Shown piece by piece: positions 1,002-64,000 of a stretch of 64,000 nt of DNA. The stretch comes from a virus. The position numbers and the translations under genes are program-made. The stretch covers positions 12,326 through 76,325 of IMG/VR virus record IMGVR_UViG_3300045988_106833, one strand, 5' to 3'. The notes under the pieces are model-generated. The model did no database searches, was not told the DNA's origin, and worked only from the letters and a program-made list of their open reading frames with translations. How positions within the stretch are numbered: the stretch's first letter is position 1; each line of letters begins with the position of its first letter.

Positions 1002-2021
1002 ATGGAGACAAAAATAATTGAAATAATGAATCCTCACAAGTTACACGACAAGCTCTTCAAGAAAGAGCAGGTCTCTCCGATAGAAGTTATATACAATAGC
1101 TTCAGCAACTTAGGGTACAATGTAGTACGCCGTCCAGCCGGTCAGTGTTTAGGCAATTTGAAATATTTTAATCTATTTTATGACAAACATACTCATCATT
1201 TCTATCAGAAAAACAGGAAGTTGAGATATTGTAGTAATTTTCTCATATCTGATTACTGGAAAGATAGAGTGCGATGTTTCATAGTTTGGAACTTTGGATT
1301 TGGAAGATTCTTTCCGTACAATGACTTTATTGAGGCTATGGTTTATGATTATCTTCGATATGGGAGAAAGTCAGTTCCTTATCTTAAAAGCGTGCAAGAG
1401 GCTGAAGAAAAGTGTGTAAGGTTCTATATCCGGTCTCAGATAGATATGCTTCGTAAGGAAGGATATGCCGCTTATCGGGCTAAGTTCAAGGAAGAACGTC
1501 CTCAGTATTTCATCGGAGACGATAGGACGGTGTTTAGATGCCTTGACAGCTCTTTAAAAAGAGAAGAGAAGATTGCTGCATGCGTAGCCCACAAAAGGGC
1601 CTTAAAAGAAGGGATAATGACTTCCTTCATTAATCACCTTAAGAAACATCCTACCACTTTATATTCGTGGTTTTCATCAGAGGTAGATAGCGAAGGAAAG
1701 AATAGGCTCTGTCTATCTGAAAAGGCTGTTTCGTATTTGAATAAGAGACTGGTTCGCAATGGGTTAAAGTCTCTTTCTGCATCATATCTTTTTAGAACGT
1801 TTAGAAAAATGGTGAAGATCTTGTTCGGTTCCAATGTCAGGTCGTTTTTGAATAGCTGTCTGATGTCTGTTTCAACAGAAGAGGTTTTAACCAAATCTAT
1901 GAAGAAAATAGTTTCCAAGACAGTGCTGTTTTTGTACAAGAGAGCGCTTAAGAACTATCGCCGGGCATGCGGTCTTAAGTACGACCCTGATTCGGGCGGT
2001 TTGTCTGCCGTACATGATTGA
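1002..2021 (+). CDS. hypothetical protein, 339 aa, with its own promoter
   Basis: Long ORF with a promoter motif upstream and a terminator-like hairpin before that. No confident domain identified. Confidence 0.6.
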   Translation: METKIIEIMNPHKLHDKLFKKEQVSPIEVIYNSFSNLGYNVVRRPAGQCLGNLKYFNLFYDKHTHHFYQKNRKLRYCSNFLISDYWKDRVRCFIVWNFGFGRFFPYNDFIEAMVYDYLRYGRKSVPYLKSVQEAEEKCVRFYIRSQIDMLRKEGYAAYRAKFKEERPQYFIGDDRTVFRCLDSSLKREEKIAACVAHKRALKEGIMTSFINHLKKHPTTLYSWFSSEVDSEGKNRLCLSEKAVSYLNKRLVRNGLKSLSASYLFRTFRKMVKILFGSNVRSFLNSCLMSVSTEEVLTKSMKKIVSKTVLFLYKRALKNYRRACGLKYDPDSGGLSAVHD

Positions 2022-2067
2022 TTTTTAAACGTATCCCATAACGTTGGATTTTCTCGTTCGTTTCTCT

Positions 2068-2075
2068 TATCTTTG
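2068..2075 (+). promoter_or_regulatory. -7 promoter motif TAtcTTTG
   Basis: TAnnTTTG match. It overlaps the GTG start used by the ORF track at 2075, which makes that start implausible. Confidence 0.4.
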
Positions 2076-2089
2076 TGAAAAAAGATAGT

Positions 2090-4933
2090 ATGAGATTACG
2101 AATCATAAAAAATCGTCCGATATTCGCTCCTGGCGGTAGTGTTCAGGATAAGAGACAGGATATTAATGTATCCTCTACTCAGCCTATTCTTGATTATGGA
2201 ACGCCTGTTAATAAATGGGGTGAATCTGATATTCAGAATATATATATGCCTTCTGATGTGACTTTAGAAACAGAGGAGGGGGAGATAAATCCATTTAGTA
2301 GTATGCCTACATCCGATCCGTTTTTTGAGAATCATGATGCAGGATATGCAGGATATCTCGCTGATAATAGGGGCATGGTTAAAAACGTAGAGAAATCAGT
2401 CGTTAATAATGCAATGAATGTAGGTAGTGTTGATGCTGATTCCTATAAAGAAAAACGTTCCCAAGATGGTAATCCTCTTGATCCTATGACTATGCCATAT
2501 TATTCGCCTGATCTAACCGGCAGAGCTCAAATGTTCGGTACAAGTCTTGGTCGGATAAGAGCCGGTAATAAGGTCGGTGCTAATGTGGCTCAAGCTGCCT
2601 TGTCCGGTGTTAGTTTAGGATTAGGTCTTACTCGTAATATCATGGGAGCTTCATCTGCTGCGTATGCAGCCAGCAGAGACGAGCAGGCTGCAAGGGAAAA
2701 ACTTGCCAAGGAGCGTCGTCAGCAATTCATCAAGTGGGAACGTGAAGGTGGTGGCGTGAATTTAGGTAACGGTCAGAAGATGGATACGTCCGATATGACT
2801 GGAGAATACATTTATCCTCTTCCTAAATCTATGGAGGATAATGCTAACGTAGAGATAGAGAAAGGCGAGTATGTGCTGACTCCTGACTCCGTAGGACCTA
2901 TGGAAGCCAAAGGGAACAGACATGAAGATGGTGGCACTCCCGTTGATTTGCCTGAAGCTCATATTATTTCAGATTACCGTACTATCGATGATGATTTTGC
3001 TTCTTATATTAGAGAAAATTATGGTATTAAGGCAACGTCTAAAGACACATATGCTACACTCCTTGATCGATATAAGAAGAAGATCGGTTTGGCTGACAAG
3101 TACGAAGATCAGGAGCGTGTATATAAGAGATTAGAGAAAAATGAAGATGTAAAAGATAAAAACACATCCAATCTCAATGCATCTATTCTTTCTAAGTACG
3201 TTAATGAAAATCAGAAGGAGATAGACGATCTCGAAACACAATTCCGTTCTTTTGCCGAAATCGTTTATGGCAAACAGGAAGAATCTAAGCGTAACGAGAA
3301 GATGGATGCTTTCTTCAGGGATGGCGGGGTTGTTGATCTGAATCAGGTAAAGAAACAAGCCAAGGCTTTTAATATTGCAGAATCAGATGCCAAGAACTGG
3401 ATATATGACGAGTATGTTAAGCAAACCAGAAAAATGGCTGAAGGTGGACCTACTCAGAAGGAGCTGGAGGAACTTAGAAAGAATGCTATCGGCTACAGTA
3501 ATCTTATCAATCAGTTATTTGGACGAACTCTTAATATGACTGTATCTGATGTTAGCGGTCGTGAGCAGATTCTTAATCCTGATTCCAGTGTAAATGCCAA
3601 TCAGAATCTACAACATAGAAGTAATTTAGGATACGGCAGGGTAAATAATAAGGCGGTATCTAATTTGCTCGACGTAAACCGATGGGCTAACAAGTACAAT
3701 ACGGATGGTGATTTTGATACAGAAGGTTTCCAGAAAGGATACAACAGGCAATTAAATGCATTGTGGGCGTTAGCTGATGTAGGTGCTATCACGAATGCTG
3801 ATGCAGCCAAGAAATTCAGAGATGAGTACGGATTCTGGGGCCAGGATGCCGGAAGCTACGGAGGTAATCAGGCTTATAATTCATTTGCCGTAGATGATAA
3901 GTTTGGTCAGACAACAGCCACCCGTTCTTATTATGGATTGGACGTTGTTTCGGCAGAGCAAAAAAGATTGTTAAACGAAAAAGGAATTAAGAATTATGTT
4001 GACTTATTTGGTGATAAATCTGATGCCGCTAAGAAGATTCTGGGCTCCGATTATAATAAGTTTGTTGCTTTAAAAGATAGCGGGTTAATGCCGGAAATGG
4101 ACTTCGTTCTTGAGTCTGTTAAACCAGAAATGAAGCCTATTGAGGCCGGTCCCATAGCACCAGACCTTACACCGCCTAAGATTGGATCTCCTGGAAGGAT
4201 AGAGGTAAAACCGAAAGCAAGTACGCCTGCGACTGCAACCGACACCGATACAGAGGAGGTGGTTGAAGACAACGGACCTAAAGGACAGGGCAGACCGGCG
4301 GCGTTCGGTCCTATCTTCCCGGAAATGCTGAGAACCCTTGACACTGGCTTGGAAATAGAAGGTCTAGAGAGGCATCAAGCACCACGTATAGACCCGGTTC
4401 TCCAATCTGCTGATCAGTATATCAACGAGCTCAACCGCGCGACATCGGCTCAGTTAGACGCAGTAGGTGACGTGCCCGACTCCCAGCGAGCTGCTATTCT
4501 GGCTAATATGAACGCCATAGCTGGAAGCAATATAGCTAAGTACGTTAATGAAGTAAATTTCAGTAACGCAAGGCAAATAAACGAAGCTGACAGGTTCAAT
4601 GAAATGGCTTATGTTCAGACAGATGATAAGAACATAGCAGAAAGGCAACGTTATGAATCTGGGTTGTTGAAAGCTATGGCTATAAGGGATGAAAATCTTG
4701 CTCGTTATTATGACAGCATAAACAGCGAGATACAGAATAAGTTCAATGTTCGTACATCGTTGAATACCATAGCCTCTATAGCTCCAAATATGAGAATGCT
4801 TCCAAGTGGTCAAATTATTTACGTTCAAGGTAATCAGGATGTGATGAATATGGGTGATTATTCTACACCTTATTTGAAGAGCTTGGAGGATGATGAAGAA
4901 GATAAATATAAAAAGAGAAGGAGAAATAGCTGA
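2090..4933 (+). CDS. giant protein 1 (947 aa from the ATG at 2090), unknown function, possibly virion-associated
   Basis: ORF-track frame. The start was moved to the first ATG downstream of the promoter motif. Central coiled-coil-like segment. Its stop overlaps the next start (ATGA at 4931-4935). Confidence 0.65.
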   Translation: MRLRIIKNRPIFAPGGSVQDKRQDINVSSTQPILDYGTPVNKWGESDIQNIYMPSDVTLETEEGEINPFSSMPTSDPFFENHDAGYAGYLADNRGMVKNVEKSVVNNAMNVGSVDADSYKEKRSQDGNPLDPMTMPYYSPDLTGRAQMFGTSLGRIRAGNKVGANVAQAALSGVSLGLGLTRNIMGASSAAYAASRDEQAAREKLAKERRQQFIKWEREGGGVNLGNGQKMDTSDMTGEYIYPLPKSMEDNANVEIEKGEYVLTPDSVGPMEAKGNRHEDGGTPVDLPEAHIISDYRTIDDDFASYIRENYGIKATSKDTYATLLDRYKKKIGLADKYEDQERVYKRLEKNEDVKDKNTSNLNASILSKYVNENQKEIDDLETQFRSFAEIVYGKQEESKRNEKMDAFFRDGGVVDLNQVKKQAKAFNIAESDAKNWIYDEYVKQTRKMAEGGPTQKELEELRKNAIGYSNLINQLFGRTLNMTVSDVSGREQILNPDSSVNANQNLQHRSNLGYGRVNNKAVSNLLDVNRWANKYNTDGDFDTEGFQKGYNRQLNALWALADVGAITNADAAKKFRDEYGFWGQDAGSYGGNQAYNSFAVDDKFGQTTATRSYYGLDVVSAEQKRLLNEKGIKNYVDLFGDKSDAAKKILGSDYNKFVALKDSGLMPEMDFVLESVKPEMKPIEAGPIAPDLTPPKIGSPGRIEVKPKASTPATATDTDTEEVVEDNGPKGQGRPAAFGPIFPEMLRTLDTGLEIEGLERHQAPRIDPVLQSADQYINELNRATSAQLDAVGDVPDSQRAAILANMNAIAGSNIAKYVNEVNFSNARQINEADRFNEMAYVQTDDKNIAERQRYESGLLKAMAIRDENLARYYDSINSEIQNKFNVRTSLNTIASIAPNMRMLPSGQIIYVQGNQDVMNMGDYSTPYLKSLEDDEEDKYKKRRRNS

Positions 4934-13900: not shown

Positions 13901-14611
13901 AGGGTTGCCGGCATAACCTCTATCCCGGAAGGAGAAGAGGTTTATGTAGAGGGAGATGAGGTTAATAGTATTATGACCGATATGGAATCAAGGTATGGTA
14001 TAGACACCATCAATCACTCGCATACGACTAAGGCTATAAGGGATCTTAACGGCGTATCAGGTTATAAAGTAGAATACGGCTTAACCTTTTTGACATACGA
14101 TCCTTTTATTAGAATATTCAATCCAAGGAAAGGATCTAAGGCTGCGAAAGACGAACCTCGTATATCCGAAGAGTCGCTTACTCACATATCAAGGGTGACA
14201 ACCCCTTATTTCTTGTACGGCGGCGATGAAGCATATACGTCTGTTCTGGCTAAGGTAGAACCTATATCAGAGAAGATAATGGCTCGTAATGGCATTAAAT
14301 TTGGTATGAGTGTAACTGAGCTAACCAAATTAGGGTACAAAAAAGCTGGTGGAAACTGGATATACAAATTCTACATGAACTCAGGCGTGTATGATTTATA
14401 TAATATCAGTACCGGAGAAGCGTTTAGGGCAAAACCGGATCTTGGAGTTAAGATAAGTTCCAGAGCATTCATCCGTTCTTTATCTCAATCTGGTAGGAAA
14501 ATACAAAATATGATGAGTAACATGAGCCAGGAAGAGATAGATAGGAATAAGAATCTTGTAGAAGGTTCTGATAATTCGGATTCGATAAATGAGTTAAATA
14601 AGGAGTGTTGA
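7970..14611 (+). CDS. giant protein 3 (2213 aa), unknown function; candidate virion or ejected protein
   Basis: 6.6-kb uninterrupted ORF. The start overlaps the upstream stop. Confidence 0.75.
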   Translation: MADNNIDRYNPAAKTTYEDVARQRKLAEEENYTPATLPETTTPLVPNYMPGEGVYAQPKFPDYASRIAAAEYEEPYIAKEISNSYSEALARNSYRGATPAPPPLNPYGPKVSIRESHQMGNDGVWRTKYPNYIPGINNEDYYARRQSGWSKFWNGVGKFALKSALYGAQGVVSLPDKLINMASEGSYKAALNTNMDKFVGDLDQQIDMLLPHYYKKEVEDYNFGQKLFKDTGNFLWNDVLGNGMSFTVGAMISAYMTGGLGVGSLGNIGAKLGGRIGAKLAARQAANRGIGSLKSVFNDYVRKGVATGRNVGEAAKTMTLLATSAGFESSVEANSFMKQSESDFKDYYRKIYGRDPNAEEMAVFRNSNADVGSAIFAANMGIVGLSNWLLFGKYIGLGGKAIPGLEKKLNKHLFGLGTEVAKPGEMAIKITNPNIGQKIAGNVFNIMKRPVSEGLWEEGSQGAVQNTAEEYVKSRYDNVAMNGAVDVLDAISEGFKKQYTSKEGWTEIGIGAIIGSLFGMREGFFGVKEYSNSQILLERQVNEYNKASSNLNTAALNTLKKSMSLGPQVRSDAQSMTGKELDDAMFEKMSIDNQMGTLEDSAENFRQMVDMMPISEIAEANGMSLEEAKKYKDSIIDNYNNRLSDFRSAQGFAEDLIGDDSKIEFRKYVARNAFLGLQSESRMKDIASVIETLSGQPRVADALSTFSRLSDRARERAMAIRGIRSRIEELESEIEDLATRPRNVDGKDPQAESIQRKTKELEDLRTNYNNSLSELSTLIGKEFSIEELVSKTESVLSSPLSPISSQDVIEAYDTLVAFDDYFNVKSRQEKKFTAKDKAMRSLVNEYRRSLMDYRNMNNFLSKMLDKRFLAEENRGFSKALSSLWSTPYKGDDKVPDFAEPNKVGEYDTDEVVDQAVSEGKISEDEAWTIKAFMHALDKVREDRMKEAEDDIKESPLTESVSDEDYEAAMDNPIMVPAVRQSIIDKLYTGNADLLTAREKDVYDKYKQDFDDYVSSLGDSPVNLIKSLSEKADRLTSPRSVYEDNKAIIDMAKSNLEPDQRKELDDAISSYVDIMNRRDKGEKVDEDKLADSVFTIEDLGQVGNITDLLPYIEQNRIIDKGRISESTLSNFGEDDANIDSLVNELDESDNTPGANIDSVQNPETLMVRRISNDGNERYEIAGLRADKFISSIKSLVPIQISSETNANGTKRYFLNIGGETATVIELPYHARWSIDKESARVLNRYTDVSIQDVGNSYSLVYKRLDSDELVPYRTGVGFGENEVDKIDQEALSSLKKGDKVNLEIDVNDTYNQSLFAEYNDAVQSGDKKRIESAENKLVSNMVIKVMSGNRFVSVVKADTGGIDGISKIRRTAFNKWKKDAGRSATISVGTHVVAQTLPGRPVFNMKVNGQGYGQVENLPITEKGAEKVSDVGYVLNGKVVLKNGSKYTGFPFAYSILNDKGNNYKNIRVPVVVIKGKNGLNYLFPVSLRSVESEEGKKWISFIDMLLESSGSELLQMGQDDIQDLNAYLTKLGLDPASYQVSYLNPISGLRKAREAIEKLSTVPDVVKWVEDGSRSVKDIVTSEVESGIDFEGEMFVAPKIRIQFGKSSSRPKSLIEDDLPFSDEGKTVTSKEDVEVYEEEMPEEGVVRETQPAPPAQPAPAAQATQSLPGKKRTSRKNFSLMLNEIESHIEKEGLPPYANIFDFIARKIVGGDLRFLRERGNPKSLKEEMGLEPKGTVGDKISTPSKKGGKTLEEYVSWLRSQTDQVVVDYVGPRSDEQIISELKNFLKYINFVPSKALNYSLRVNGMDTLKEYGTKEEVEKMESDINSLVSKVLPTVDNQTIEDVSTAIKSNNLPAIWEPVESLNMTNEEKIEFLNNIADFLSGIPRYDAIVGSIESESDNILNDGKEGSAEGGAVRTEEDGDKKGDGEGKGQSRTNVEVKGNVELPGSEEGRVDNYRKNGDKFSDIAEVTLWLLRRVAGITSIPEGEEVYVEGDEVNSIMTDMESRYGIDTINHSHTTKAIRDLNGVSGYKVEYGLTFLTYDPFIRIFNPRKGSKAAKDEPRISEESLTHISRVTTPYFLYGGDEAYTSVLAKVEPISEKIMARNGIKFGMSVTELTKLGYKKAGGNWIYKFYMNSGVYDLYNISTGEAFRAKPDLGVKISSRAFIRSLSQSGRKIQNMMSNMSQEEIDRNKNLVEGSDNSDSINELNKEC

Positions 14612-53260: not shown

Positions 53261-54139
53261 TTAGATAAGATGCCTTTTATAACTAACGCCAGAAGAGTGA
53301 CTAAGATCGGAAACTTTCTTTCCCCACAAACGTTTCATCCCTTCAATGTTTAGATCTTCAATAAAAATATAATCATATTGTTTACACAAATCATGAGCTA
53401 ATTTCCATTGAAAGTCTGATCGAAGATCGTTTATTTTACGATACTTTTGTTGGAGTTCAAACAGTCTCCTTCTTCTATTGTTAGATCCTTTCTTTGCATT
53501 AGAAAGCCGTTTGTTTAGTTTTCTAATCTTGTTTTGATATTGTTTGAAGAATAGAGGAGATCCAATTTTGCTACCATCGCTTTTAGTTAGATAAGTTTTC
53601 AGACCAAAATCCAATCCTATAGATGCACCATCATGTGTCTTTCTATAAGAGTTTGAATGATTATGATCTGTAATTATAATCAAACTAAAACGTGAACAGG
53701 TTTCTCTAACTATTCTTATTTGCTTAACATTACCTTCATAAGGTCTACTGTATGAGAATCTAAATCGTTTGTTTCCTTTGTTAATTGTTAAACAATTACC
53801 ATTCAGGGTAAAACCACCTTGTTTGAATACAAAAGAATTGAATTTCTCCGGTGATTTAAACTTAGGAGGTCGTTTAGCCAACTTCTTAAAGAAACGATTA
53901 TAAGATTCATCAAGACGCTCAAGTATTTCTTGTGTTGTTTGAGAATGAAGAAGATTTCTTTTAATTCTTTTGGTAAAATGTTTCTTCATCTTACCAATTG
54001 ATATATATTTCCCAAACAGTTTGTAATACCTACGTTGTAGAGCTAAAGCATGATTCCATACAAAACAACATTCACGAAGCATCTTGTCTAGATACTTCGT
54101 TTTCTTTGAATGATAGATGTTGTATTTGTATGAAATCAT
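53261..54139 (-). pseudogene. tnpB: C-terminally truncated IS200/IS605-family TnpB (OrfB) homolog (292 aa)
   Basis: RuvC-I (IGLDFGLKTY) and RuvC-II (IFIEDLNIEGM) are present, plus the Arg-rich linker. The ORF stops after WGKKVSDLSHS. The 100 nt before the next gene contain no RuvC-III or zinc-finger segment in any frame (checked by hand). No TnpA is adjacent. Confidence 0.7.
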
Positions 54140-56783: not shown

Positions 56784-57446
56784 TCATTTCAGCTCTTTAA
56801 TTAAAGCATCCGCATATATTACAGCTAATTCAGCCGCCTTATCACACGTCTCCAATATTAATTCACCGTGAGGTCCACGCCCTGATACGGATGTGATCGG
56901 AAGCATGGTTTTTGCCATCTCGTATCTACGTTGTTCCCAATCTACATGGGTGTTACACGGTTCTTGATTGACCTGTATATATCTTCCTTCAATATTAGAA
57001 GATCTTAATGTTTCCGCATTCTCTTCGCCGAATGCAACCAGAATAGACCCACATCCTGGACTTTCACCTATTGTTCCATCTTCTCTGTGGAATTTTATCC
57101 TTCCTTTCATGAACAATATACCTTTTGCTTTCGGGAATACAACATCCTGAAACATCTTATTGTCAAGACGATTAAAAAGAAGAGCTATTCCATTATTGTG
57201 CTCTACCATACGAGTAATAAAATGCTCTATAGTCGGTCTTGAATAAGGTGGGTTTAACCATACCCTTCCTTCCCATTTTTGTTTTAATCCATCTTGCTCT
57301 TTGTTATACATAACCCTGGCTGTCCTCCATAACGGACGCATAGGCGCACATGGATCTAAATCAAATTTCCCTAAAGCGTCTATAATTTCTTTAGGTGTGT
57401 ACCATTCATCTGTACTGTTTTTAGATTTCTCAAATGATGTATTCAT
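56784..57446 (-). CDS. phage-type DNA N6-adenine methyltransferase (220 aa)
   Basis: WYTPKEIIDALGKFDLDPCA and WLNPPYS (NPPY catalytic motif) follow the phage 'Dam' (T1/P1-like) family pattern. Confidence 0.75.
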   Translation of the reverse strand: MNTSFEKSKNSTDEWYTPKEIIDALGKFDLDPCAPMRPLWRTARVMYNKEQDGLKQKWEGRVWLNPPYSRPTIEHFITRMVEHNNGIALLFNRLDNKMFQDVVFPKAKGILFMKGRIKFHREDGTIGESPGCGSILVAFGEENAETLRSSNIEGRYIQVNQEPCNTHVDWEQRRYEMAKTMLPITSVSGRGPHGELILETCDKAAELAVIYADALIKELK

Positions 57447-62265: not shown

Positions 62266-63048
62266 TTAAATACTTAACTCTTCAATGGTCAAGCCTTTTT
62301 CTTTTGCCCACTTTAGCATCGCGCATAATTCTGTTTCTGACTTATATTTCGGATCACGCCACGCCCATCCGAATTTATCCAGGACATGATGATATAATTC
62401 GTCGGCCTTTGCCGTGTAAATGTCTTTGAATAAATGCTCCGAACCTTCTGGTATAAGCATCTCTGTTGTTGCAAAATCGGAATACGACAAACATCCGTAA
62501 GCATATTCTGTTATTTCACTCCACGCTTCTCCGGCTTTAAATCCAAATTCTTTTACAAAAGCCAAAGTTAGATACATATTTAATAATATTGTTACATCAT
62601 ATCCAGAATCCGACTTTCTTTCTATTATTTTCTTTTCAAATTCCTTTAAATCTTCAGGCCCTAAAAAGATGTATCCTGATACCGACCGATAATTAGCCTC
62701 CGCATACTTCTTGCATTTATCATCATTAATAATCTTACCAATGTTAGATAACATCTTTTGCCTCCATTCATCACAAAACTCTATCCTTACATCCATCCAA
62801 TCAGTACCATAATTGCGATCTTTTGGATGTCCGACCGATATTACCTTTATGTTATTCACACCATATTCATAAAGGCGTTCGCCCACCTTATCCGCCCATT
62901 CCTGTACAAAAGGAATAAACTTATTGCAATAAGAATCAAAATCAAAATCTAATTCCTCCTCATATTCCGGCATCTCTTCATAATCTTGTTCAAAGAAATA
63001 TCGAGGATCTGCTATTGTTTCATAGAAACTTACGTTAATAATTGTCAC
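62266..63048 (-). CDS. hypothetical acidic protein (260 aa; GTG start in the ORF track)
   Basis: Long ORF. Its start overlaps the end of the upstream micro-ORF. Confidence 0.55.
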   Translation of the reverse strand: MTIINVSFYETIADPRYFFEQDYEEMPEYEEELDFDFDSYCNKFIPFVQEWADKVGERLYEYGVNNIKVISVGHPKDRNYGTDWMDVRIEFCDEWRQKMLSNIGKIINDDKCKKYAEANYRSVSGYIFLGPEDLKEFEKKIIERKSDSGYDVTILLNMYLTLAFVKEFGFKAGEAWSEITEYAYGCLSYSDFATTEMLIPEGSEHLFKDIYTAKADELYHHVLDKFGWAWRDPKYKSETELCAMLKWAKEKGLTIEELSI

Positions 63049-63196: not shown

Positions 63197-63349
63197 TTTC
63201 TTTCCTCCTTTGTTTTTAATGTTGTGTGAGATCGCCGGAATCGAACCGACCTACCGCACCATGAATCCCATAAAGCAAGTGCTCCGATCTTCGCAGACGG
63301 GAGCACTCTGTCTAAAGCATAAGAAAATTAATGAAGAAATTTTTCTCAC

Positions 63350-63430: not shown

Positions 63431-63537
63431 ATCGCTATCTCCTCCTTTTTATTTTTTTTAGTTCCACAACAAACTGTTCCGGCTCTGCTCCGACCTACGT
63501 TCCACCTACAACCGCAGGCCTTAGCCCAAGGCGCCGC

Positions 63538-63798
63538 CTACTCCCCCTCTATGGCAGCCTGTTCGTACCTACAACACCAGTCTCTATCTATACAACTATC
63601 ACTACGCGATAACAAACATTTATCCTTATAACAATCATAAAAAATACACCTATCACAACTGTAATCCTTAACTTCTACACAGCTAACTACCTTAGCATAT
63701 ACTATACCATCACCGTCTTCTATTCCTTTCACCCCAAAAATAGAACCTTCTTCCTCCTTACTCAAATCTAAGTCAGGCGCAAAGTCATATACGTTCAT
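63538..63798 (-). CDS. small Cys-rich protein (86 aa), paralog of 45553..45750
   Basis: Shares SCVEV..CDRCIFYDCYKDKC with the 65-aa protein at 45553..45750. Confidence 0.5.
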   Translation of the reverse strand: MNVYDFAPDLDLSKEEEGSIFGVKGIEDGDGIVYAKVVSCVEVKDYSCDRCIFYDCYKDKCLLSRSDSCIDRDWCCRYEQAAIEGE

Positions 63799-63872
63799 GT
63801 TGTTTATGTTTTAATTGTTATACATTCCGATTACTACTAATCTATAGAATATAGTTTTCAACTCTCAACCTA

Positions 63873-64000
63873 TTGAATTTTGTAGAATAAACTCACATTA
63901 TGCCGTTTTAAAGCACTGATCTGTTGAATTTAAAGCACTGATCTGTTGAATTTTGTTGGAAGGAAGTTGAATTTTGTTGGAAGGAAGTTGAATTTTGTTG
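63873..64000. repeat. iteron-like array: TTGAATTT(T) at 63873, 63924, 63946, 63967 and 63988, embedded in two 22-nt tandem units (aaagcactgatctgttgaattt x2; tgttggaaggaagttgaatttt x2 and more); the array runs off the window end
   Basis: Direct repeats read from the sequence. Spacing is 21-22 bp, about two helical turns. No unique spacers. Confidence 0.6.

Follow-up and report, generated by a model that had tools for sequence, protein, structure and literature searches.

The right-hand edge of the window, by which is meant the whole 64,000-nt stretch of viral DNA analysed here, carries an array of short direct repeats. A conserved cis-acting element lies in the main non-coding control region of the epsilon crAss-like (Epsilonunovirus) phages, and this array is its variable portion. 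The element is probably (we would put it at roughly 70%) a functional protein-binding repeat array of some kind, judging from the comparison of its sequence among related phages. The leading guess as to its role, a tentative one, is that of an origin of replication, and a role at the genome end or in packaging appears to be nearly as likely. The strongest argument for a functional element is the conservation of its position and architecture across lineages.

The repeat array in the window

The motif TTGAATTT is found on the + strand at positions 63873, 63924, 63946, 63967 and 63988, with spacings of 51, 22, 21 and 21 nt. The original prediction had described five copies, the last four at a spacing of 21–22 nt, and this was borne out (positions 63873–63988). 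Across the 64-kb window the motif occurs nine times, versus 8.65 times expected from shuffled sequences, and five of the nine occurrences are located in the last 128 nt. Two perfect arrays were identified at this site by Tandem Repeats Finder (TRF), one of a 22-nt unit (TTTAAAGCACTGATCTGTTGAA; 100% match, score 94) and one of a 21-nt unit (GTTGAATTTTGTTGGAAGGAA; 100% match, score 112), the latter clipped at the window end. These have the two top scores among the 35 tandem arrays in the window. The two units are in direct orientation, differ from each other and overlap, so that what had been described as a set of 22-nt tandem units does consist of perfect tandem repeats, but of two overlapping units (22 and 21 nt) and not one.

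The first TTGAATTT copy, at 63873, is part of a degenerate copy of a larger parent unit of approximately 51 nt, and the 21-mer present in the window is a recent perfect expansion of the second box (box B) of that unit. A motif search detected no second locus for the unit motifs in the window or in the 151-kb genome of phage csAssE-Sib. None of the units contains a strong internal inverted repeat, except for a 10-bp sequence, GTTTTAAAAC, in box A. As predicted, the array follows the last minus-strand gene (ORF 63538–63798), beginning approximately 70 nt past its start codon, and is cut off by the end of the window. Most probably, the window has its edge here because the source contig stopped here. 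The coordinates of the features are listed in Table 1.

Table 1. Features at the right-hand edge of the window
Feature	Position	Strand	Basis and remarks
86-aa Cys-rich ORF	63538..63798	-	ORF list; first gene downstream of the array, transcribed leftward
AT-rich leader, ~70 nt	63799..63869		Sequence; separates the 86-aa gene start from the first repeat
Degenerate first copy of the parent-unit right half (box B), CTATTGAATTTTGTAGAATAAACT	63870..63893	+	Sequence, set against units from related phages
One parent unit: box A (CACATTATGCCGTTTTAAAG), GATC-containing spacer, box B (TTGAATTT)	63894..63953	+	TRF; consensus aaccTACAnaATgCTGTTTTAAAaCgCTgatctntTgAATTTTGTtGGaA
Perfect 22-nt duplication of TTTAAAGCACTGATCTGTTGAA, 2.1 copies, within the parent unit	63907–63953	+	TRF
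Perfect tandem repeat of the 21-nt sub-unit GTTGAATTTTGTTGGAAGGAA, 2.7 copies; an expansion of box B	63945..64000	+	TRF

The equivalent of the AT-rich leader in a related stretch, L005, has a G+C content of 26–29% over the 70–100 nt to the left of the array. The leader is kept in one sub-lineage, and a poly-A-containing leader is found instead in another. The most AT-rich stretch (19–23% G+C) is situated 2.3–2.7 kb from the array, where it adjoins a second array described below.

The array in close relatives

The window shares 95–98% identity with phage csAssE-Sib (OR575929; 151,256 bp; human gut), an epsilon crAss-like phage for which the genus Epsilonunovirus has been proposed (PMC11054128). 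The name of the phage is spelled CrAssE-Sib in that paper. Seven IMG/VR stretches were retrieved with the 42-nt double unit as the query, and 180 related loci with the 86-aa protein; the best 80 of these 180 IMG/VR relatives of the protein share 87–97% identity.

Repeats were present in all of the relatives examined, the parent unit occurring in two to six copies in 62 of the 62 relatives with a complete region (48 distinct versions). Its consensus, derived from 104 distinct unit sequences, is aaccTACAnaATgCTGTTTTAAAaCgCTgatctntTgAATTTTGTtGGaA. Two boxes, CTACAnAATnCTGTTTTAAA and TKAATTTTGTKGG, are far better conserved among these 104 sequences than the spacer between them, of which there are at least three versions; box A served as the anchor for unit extraction, so only the conservation of box B counts as independent evidence. 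The T/A tracts of the two boxes are approximately 21 nt apart, and it is approximately 30 nt to the next unit. Phased A/T tracts cause intrinsic bending of DNA. Inspection of the sequence beyond the point at which the window ends, where a long, unphased satellite would have spoken against the original prediction, revealed a finite array spanning approximately 40–360 nt in the relatives and then unique conserved sequence. Its right end is marked in these relatives by an invariant GTGCCC and a polypyrimidine tract.

It is apparent that the number of copies differs considerably among these phages, from 2 to 17. L005 contains 3.3 copies of the 51-nt unit and 4.1 copies of the 21-mer, followed by GTGCCCTCCCTCCCCCCCTCTCC and then the unique conserved sequence. 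In L004 the 21-mer family, with its GGAAGGAA and GAAAGGAA variants, is represented by approximately 17 copies that form higher-order blocks. The genome of csAssE-Sib has three to four diverged parent units without a 21-mer expansion, which argues that the repeated structure is old and has been maintained. Copy number and register vary even between strains with identical flanking genes. Thus, a contig encoding an identical 86-aa protein (L180) has the 22-nt duplication of the window followed by at least 9.6 21-mers and close variants, and a strain-identical contig (L178) has three copies of the 22-mer versus two in the window.

A total of 83 perfect tandem blocks were identified in 73 distinct versions of the region, with periods of 21 nt in 41 cases, 22 nt in 8 and 50–51 nt in 14. 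The periods of the remaining 20 are 12, 17–20, 24–32 and 54 nt. The phasing at two helical turns that had been proposed is thus supported to the extent that periods of 21–22 nt dominate (49 of 83 blocks), followed by those near 51 nt, which correspond to some five turns, but other periods occur as well, and two turns or so is a favoured step rather than an invariant one. At least eight different registers are represented among the duplications of 21–22 nt, some of which are without the TTGTTGG core. The expansions nearly always include the core TGAATTTTGTTGG. Duplication boundaries are located in the T-runs of box A and box B, and slippage between these T-runs can in part explain the preference for 21–22 nt.

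More distant lineages

The neighbouring 260-aa protein (62266–63048) was used as a query to reach relatives with identities down to approximately 25%. Four other lineages (L172, L174, L175 and L176) were obtained in this way from Logan contigs, at 36–58% identity. All four contain repeats at the equivalent position, and these differ in sequence from one lineage to another. Those of L172 have the form CTTAGAAA[AT]G(G)TTGTTAGG, approximately 19–20 nt, with two good copies and additional degenerate ones. L174 has 1.9 copies of the 22-nt unit TATTTTCTCGGTTCGGAGTGTC, a degenerate copy and shorter repeats of 8–9 nt, and the repeats of L176 are pyrimidine-rich, with lengths of 8–9 and 17 nt. GGATT-type repeats are observed in L175; their spacing is irregular and they were not called as tandem by TRF.

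Alignment reveals that the repeats terminate at an invariant G.GTGYCC in the genus of the window and in all four of the other lineages. A pyrimidine-rich stretch follows GTGYCC in the genus of the window and in L172, L174 and L176, but not in L175, and a small gene encoding two predicted transmembrane (TM) helices is next in L172 and L174. A repeat sequence that is specific to each lineage, at a position that is conserved, is the pattern that would be expected of binding sites co-evolving with a protein.

Alignment of the 260-aa protein to IMG/VR retrieved only the genus of the window, and its distant relatives, used as queries in turn, detected no related loci in IMG/VR or in the JGI metagenomes. 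The homologues of a 179-aa neighbour are all at least 84% identical, with no distant ones among them, and a tblastn search of a phage collection with the NrnA-like gene returned only csAssE-Sib and unrelated jumbo phages.

Genomic setting

The array is situated between two small genes on the same strand and not at a strand switch. In csAssE-Sib the minus-strand block in which it lies is 57 kb long, running from 17.4 kb back through the start of the record to 110.9 kb. It contains genes for nucleotide metabolism, SSB, a clamp, helicases, a primase and a DnaB-like helicase, as well as many small ORFans. The plus-strand block, from 17.4 to 110.8 kb, contains the packaging and structural genes. 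Of the two junctions between these blocks, the divergent one is approximately 18 kb from the array and the convergent one 40 kb.

Rightward of the array, in order, come the polypyrimidine tract and approximately 180 nt of conserved non-coding DNA; a gene for a 55-aa protein with two TM helices, intact in 52 relatives; a non-coding stretch of approximately 385 nt in which GTTTCGTTTTAGACCAAT occurs twice (four times in L172); and the sequence GTTCACT|CTCAGAATAT. The variable columns of the 55-aa ORF in the 52 relatives are distributed as 14/6/28 over the three codon positions, and the ORF is a real gene. Conservation of the non-coding DNA on this side of the array is 93–97%, higher than the 84–91% of the nearby 179-aa gene. 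A second, unrelated hypervariable array, with units of 27–31 nt, lies approximately 2.8 kb to the right and adjoins a CCCCCTCTC tract. Several protein clusters encoded between the two arrays have 1,000–2,000 member sequences. For an inter-array gene, many of the listed Logan contigs are 2.7–2.8 kb long, which is approximately the distance between the arrays.

Searches of Pfam and the PHROGs produced no match for the neighbouring proteins of 86, 53, 260, 55, 68, 56 and 179 aa, of which the 53-aa one is zinc-ribbon-like. Among approximately 25 neighbour proteins, taken from either side of the array and scanned against these two collections, none matched Rep, DnaA-like, helicase-loader, ParA/ParB, TerS or helix–turn–helix families; the only matches were to an SMC-like ATPase, Dam, IS605 OrfB, DUF4494, DUF3268 and an exonuclease-like PHROG, the last of these being the match of the 438-aa ‘replication factor’. 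The sole ATPase among the scanned proteins is the SMC/RecF-like one (AAA_23), approximately 8 kb from the array. The 339-aa protein that had been put forward as a candidate initiator fared no better: it matches no family, and it is encoded in the plus-strand block, which is annotated as largely structural in csAssE-Sib. A confident structural model was obtained for the 260-aa protein (pLDDT 85.5), with no structural match, and the model of the 179-aa protein was unusable (pLDDT 53). A search of the locus for tRNA genes found none. Rfam gave no match at E≤1 in L005 and L008 (locus and flanks), and the conserved 190 nt on the right-hand side of the array, when folded as RNA, showed no sign of structure on either strand (z-scores of –0.2 and +0.8).

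GC skew tracks gene orientation, and its cumulative curve has no extremum at the array. In 1-kb windows the skew is –0.27 to the left of the locus versus –0.19 to the right (P=0.003), a difference in the direction that would be anticipated for an origin. Within the plus-strand block, one half has the same skew as the other (0.175 versus 0.167; P=0.73), so no replichore pattern is evident. The skew analysis suggested in the original prediction has therefore yielded a local step of origin-like sign, but neither an extremum nor a replichore pattern, and the step could mark the boundary of a transcription unit. In the same way, the proposal of replication-origin iterons stands in so far as the direct repeats are real, finite and confined to a single locus; the strand switch, the skew extremum and the recognizable initiator or partition gene that might accompany such an origin were not found there.

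The predicted genome start

Position 1 of OR575929 was set with PhageTerm (P=1.5e–22; PMC11054128). This start lies approximately 0.65 kb to the right of the array, between the two arrays. The junction reads GTTCACT|CTCAGAATAT (in short form GTTCACT|CTCAGAAT), with the bar denoting position 1 of the GenBank record. It is essentially invariant in 52 relatives, three of which lack one base downstream of the junction, and the junction 11-mer GTTCACTCTCA is present at the equivalent place in the distant L172 and L175. Two to four copies of a conserved 18-mer, GTTTCGWTTTARACCAAT, are located approximately 20–110 nt from the PhageTerm start. In csAssE-Sib, putative terS and terL genes occupy 20.1–23.2 kb, approximately 20 kb from the array. 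Linkage of the terminase site to the gene for the small subunit is common, although not universal. The record of crAss001 is circular with an arbitrary start, and is therefore unusable for a comparison of genome ends.

A putative origin of replication

The origin reading is suggested by the iteron-like geometry of the repeats, their conserved non-coding setting midway along the block of replication genes, the reported lack of a polymerase of the phage’s own and the sign of the skew step. The points against it are that no recognizable initiator is encoded nearby, that no replichore pattern is present and that the variability is unusual. Copy number, and even the period, are far more variable here than in classical origins.

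On the origin reading, several copies of a phage DNA-binding protein would bind the phased repeats cooperatively, in the manner of iterons, and the phased T/A tracts would bend the DNA and align the sites along the same helical face. This protein–DNA assembly would act on the invariant motif next to it and, as the best single guess, would start DNA replication. The epsilon crAss-like phages are reported to encode no DNA polymerase (PMC11054128). A group of phages without a polymerase would recruit the replisome of the host, which the origin reading would suit. The extra perfect copies were probably gained and lost through replication slippage, and would for the most part be tolerated rather than required. 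Because the second array also adjoins a CCCCCTCTC tract, polypyrimidine tracts may promote repeat instability whatever the function.

Two further proposals may be mentioned. It is conceivable, if decidedly speculative, that the repeats, GTGYCC and the polypurine–polypyrimidine tract jointly make up a start site of a new type, used by polymerase-less phages. Leftward transcripts would be G-rich over the tract (GGAGAGGGGGAGAGGGAGGG) and could form a stable R-loop from which DNA synthesis is primed; loading of the phage helicase would fall to the adjacent iteron array, and strain-level changes in the copy number of this array would adjust replication or gut persistence. In a related reading, the two arrays could be telomere-like processing elements that bracket the genome end.

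Alternative explanations

It is possible, rather than likely, that the arrays are accessory repeats of a genome end, which would flank a physical end or pac site and aid the terminase, or the processing of ends, on concatemers. The PhageTerm start, approximately 640 nt to the right of the array and between the two arrays, is consistent with this, as are the bracketing of a 2.8-kb segment by both arrays, the near-invariance of the junction in 52 relatives with its 11-mer recurring in L172 and L175 and the 18-mer beside it, and the uniqueness of the array motifs in the genome. These 640 nt are nevertheless a considerable distance, with a real 55-aa gene in between; the terminase genes are some 20 kb away; recognition by the terminase is more plausible for the 18-mer repeats located beside the end; and thousands of Logan contigs cross the predicted end. 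In addition, the type of packaging is not stated in PMC11054128 and the PhageTerm peak derives from a single sample. That the array is itself a true direct terminal repeat of the virion (the original prediction had allowed for its being part of one), or else purely an artefact of assembly, is very improbable. Contigs do end here: 25 of the 87 loci located through the gene stop within 365 nt of it, mostly in or adjoining perfect tandem copies, three of the three listed contigs with an identical 86-aa protein stop inside the array, and one IMG/VR contig has the array at both of its ends (L003 and L007). Short-read assemblers are, however, expected to stop within perfect repeats, and circular overlap usually shows itself as a tandem repeat at the two ends of a contig. 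The versions of the array are reproducible across studies, and 62 independent contigs cross it into the same unique conserved sequence, which argues against the array being a terminal repeat.

The variability of the array raises a different question, that of whether the perfect 21- and 22-nt copies are neutral products of slippage, a viral minisatellite in which at most the old, diverged units are functional. Such copies would originate from T-runs approximately 21 nt apart and from the stalling of forks at the adjacent polypurine–polypyrimidine tract. We consider this explanation rather unlikely, at least as a full account, and note that it is compatible with a function for the core units. 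The copies are 100% identical within a genome and differ between genomes in number, register and period; the arrays differ among contigs with an identical 86-aa protein; the 21-mer expansion is entirely lacking in csAssE-Sib; duplication edges fall within the T-runs of the two boxes; and the unrelated second array is also located against a CCCCCTCTC tract. All of this would be expected of slippage, which leaves unexplained both the two or more parent units with conserved boxes in every relative and the occurrence of unrelated repeats at the same spot in five lineages, as well as the near-constant inclusion of the TGAATTTTGTTGG core in the expansions. Control of transcription, whether by tandem promoters or operators for the leftward operon of small ORFans 70 nt away or for a rightward non-coding RNA, is less probable still. 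The sigma-A promoter consensus of Bacteroides consists of TAnnTTTG at –7 and TTTG at –33, approximately 19 nt upstream. One variant of the unit, TAATTTTG, fits the –7 element on the + strand; a long series of small minus-strand genes that lack annotation begins immediately downstream of the array; both GC skew and AT skew peak in strength beside the array and fall to the right; and very high early transcription of long intergenic regions is reported for the crAss-like phage phi14:2 (preprint 10.1101/2020.03.07.982082). Nevertheless, the 21-mer itself has GAATTTTG and not TAnnTTTG, with no TTTG at the right distance for –33; the units of L172 and L174 do not fit TAnnTTTG either; the whole window contains only four full promoter matches; and a motif confined to one locus is not a general promoter. 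No promoter-like motif was observed in the sense (minus) orientation, and the adjacent conserved stretch gave no Rfam match and no unusual folding. The Bacteroides TAnnTTTG promoter was rejected as the main explanation, its match being in one unit variant, on the + strand and antisense to the flanking genes.

Significance

The epsilon crAss-like phages are abundant in human gut metagenomes and uncultured, and single protein clusters from this locus have up to approximately 2,000 members. The locus is the clearest candidate for a cis-element in the genome, since it comprises the largest conserved non-coding region and three conserved kinds of repeat, and adjoins the only published estimate of the genome end. 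The paper on csAssE-Sib (PMC11054128) is silent on it, and a literature search found no other description. The array is a point at which short-read assemblies predictably break, so that calls of ‘complete’ or ‘DTR’ genomes can be repeat artefacts, and its copy number and register may be of use as a strain marker. Should binding and function be shown, the element would offer the first handle on replication or packaging in this family.

Comparison with known systems

The iterons of theta origins (lambda ori, P1 oriR, F oriS, R6K gamma and RK2 oriV) resemble the array in having direct repeats of approximately 20 nt, for the most part spaced by about two turns at a single locus, with a lineage-specific sequence at a conserved position; the AT-rich stretch on one side of the array may be a further point in common. 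At least three direct repeats of approximately 17–22 bp are present at one locus here. The array differs from those iterons in the lack of a recognizable initiator gene nearby and in its more variable copy number and period. It is, moreover, organized at two levels (a 51-nt parent and a 21-nt sub-unit), and it ends at GTGYCC, usually followed by pyrimidine-rich DNA. The origins of lactococcal and streptococcal phages (c2 ori, Sfi21 ori and the ‘per’ elements) are non-coding and repeat-rich, and were defined by plasmid replication or interference with phage. They share with the present candidate element a highly conserved non-coding stretch with direct repeats between gene blocks; there is no sequence similarity to them.

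Repeats near genome ends are found in the repeat arrays that flank the T7 terminal repeat, the R sites of lambda cosB, pacL and pacR of SPP1, the pac hexamers of P1 and the DR arrays of the herpesvirus a-sequence. A unique site, direct repeats, phased A/T tracts and proximity to a predicted physical end are features in common with the array; variable copy number is shared with the herpesvirus DR arrays, and the bracketing of the end region by two arrays with the surroundings of the T7 terminal repeat. In contrast to these systems, the array is separated from the predicted end by approximately 640 nt and one gene, and is far from the terminase genes. The centromeres of plasmids and phage-plasmids (F sopC, with 12 units of 43 bp, and P1 parS) likewise have tandem identical units and tolerate variation in copy number, but no ParA/ParB-type genes were present among the proteins scanned here. 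The minisatellites (VNTRs) of bacteria and viruses are similar in their perfect tandem copies, strain-level polymorphism in copy number and tendency to break short-read assemblies. Unlike them, the array is built on older, conserved and diverged units, and its position is kept across lineages that share no repeat sequence. Taken as a whole, these comparisons place the array as a viral iteron-like or minisatellite cis-element, with a geometry that appears iteron-like and a location that in part resembles that of terminase or genome-end repeats.

Second tandem array and intervening palindromes

Approximately 2.8 kb rightward of the first array, a second hypervariable tandem array was observed. 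Its units, of 27-31 nt (CATCACATAAACATCTTTCATATCCCT), are unrelated to those of the first. A CCCCCTCTC tract adjoins it, as is also the case for the first array, and a G-run-rich stretch, GGGGGTGTGGGGGAGAAAACGCGTTTCGGGGGCGGGAGG, precedes it. The second array is the end point of approximately 10 IMG/VR contigs. Many of the Logan contigs listed are 2.7-2.8 kb in length, approximately the distance between the arrays.

The palindrome TGATWATCA clusters between the arrays, where the two non-coding stretches rich in AT hold 4 of its 10 genomic copies (3.75 are expected genome-wide). It resembles an operator.

Both ends of the 141-kb IMG/VR contig 3300045988_113203 lie inside the 21-mer array (the related stretches L003 and L007 derive from this contig). 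Such overlapping ends, though nothing more than tandem repeat, could be taken for a 'direct terminal repeat' or for a complete circular genome.

Predicted genome start and neighbouring sequences

The genome start of csAssE-Sib, as defined with PhageTerm, falls within the motif GTTCACT|CTCAGAATAT (record junction 151250-151256/1-10), which is nearly unchanged across 52 relatives. Distant lineages retain the 11-mer GTTCACTCTCA, which occurs once more 2.6-2.9 kb off. It could be a site of nuclease or terminase cleavage or of nicking.

Immediately to the left of the predicted start are 2-4 copies of a conserved 18-mer, GTTTCGWTTTARACCAAT, which is almost unchanged between lineages whose neighbouring proteins are only ~50% identical. 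Recognition by a terminase or initiator is more plausible for this 18-mer than for the 21-mer of the first array.

A small gene encodes a 55-aa protein for which two membrane helices are predicted; it remains intact in 52 relatives, its variation being biased to third positions, and a 61-aa CDS is annotated at roughly its place in csAssE-Sib. In the more distant L172 and L174, equivalent small membrane-protein genes come after the repeats.

Coordinates of the features described, with strand where reported
Feature	Location	Strand	Remark
Second hypervariable tandem array	L005 (related stretch) 14341-14413; csAssE-Sib 2066-2176		beyond window
TGATWATCA copies	csAssE-Sib 151028, 1813, 1924, 1951		L005 about 12003 and 14080-14230
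18-mer	csAssE-Sib 151142-151159, 151216-151233		
18-mer	L172 7579-7893		4 copies
Start motif/11-mer, second copy	csAssE-Sib 148361-148377	-	
11-mer	L005 12241-12251, 9663-9673		
11-mer	L172 7089-7099, 8780-8790		
11-mer	L175 (distant lineage) 1166-1176		
55-aa protein gene	L005 11778-11945	-	beyond window
GC-rich non-coding pieces	window 63226-63320	-	
	window 63470-63570, 400-480; L005 12740-12800		
IS605 OrfB/TnpB-like gene (PF01385)	window 53261-54139	-	
Dam-type adenine methyltransferase gene (PF05869)	window 56784-57446	-	

Other features of the window

Several GC-rich non-coding pieces hold a tRNA T-arm-like sequence, GGTTCGATTCC, and acceptor-like ends. These pieces gave no tRNA call with ARAGORN and no Rfam match; they could derive from former tRNAs or be tRNA-like elements. 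The window encodes a Dam-type methyltransferase, and the GATCTG-type parent repeat unit of the first array has one GATC site.

At the point equivalent to window 63039/63040, the related loci compared contain 1.3-2.8 kb of additional DNA, so the window phage has either undergone a deletion or lacks an insertion there. The second copy of GTTCACTCTCAGAAT sits within this DNA, which in csAssE-Sib corresponds to six annotated small genes (record 147.5-149.2 kb).

The genes of the window lie on the plus strand at 1-31.4 kb and on the minus strand from 33 kb on, and GC skew and gene orientation both flip at about 32000. This position is a convergent junction, the counterpart of that at about 110.8 kb in csAssE-Sib.
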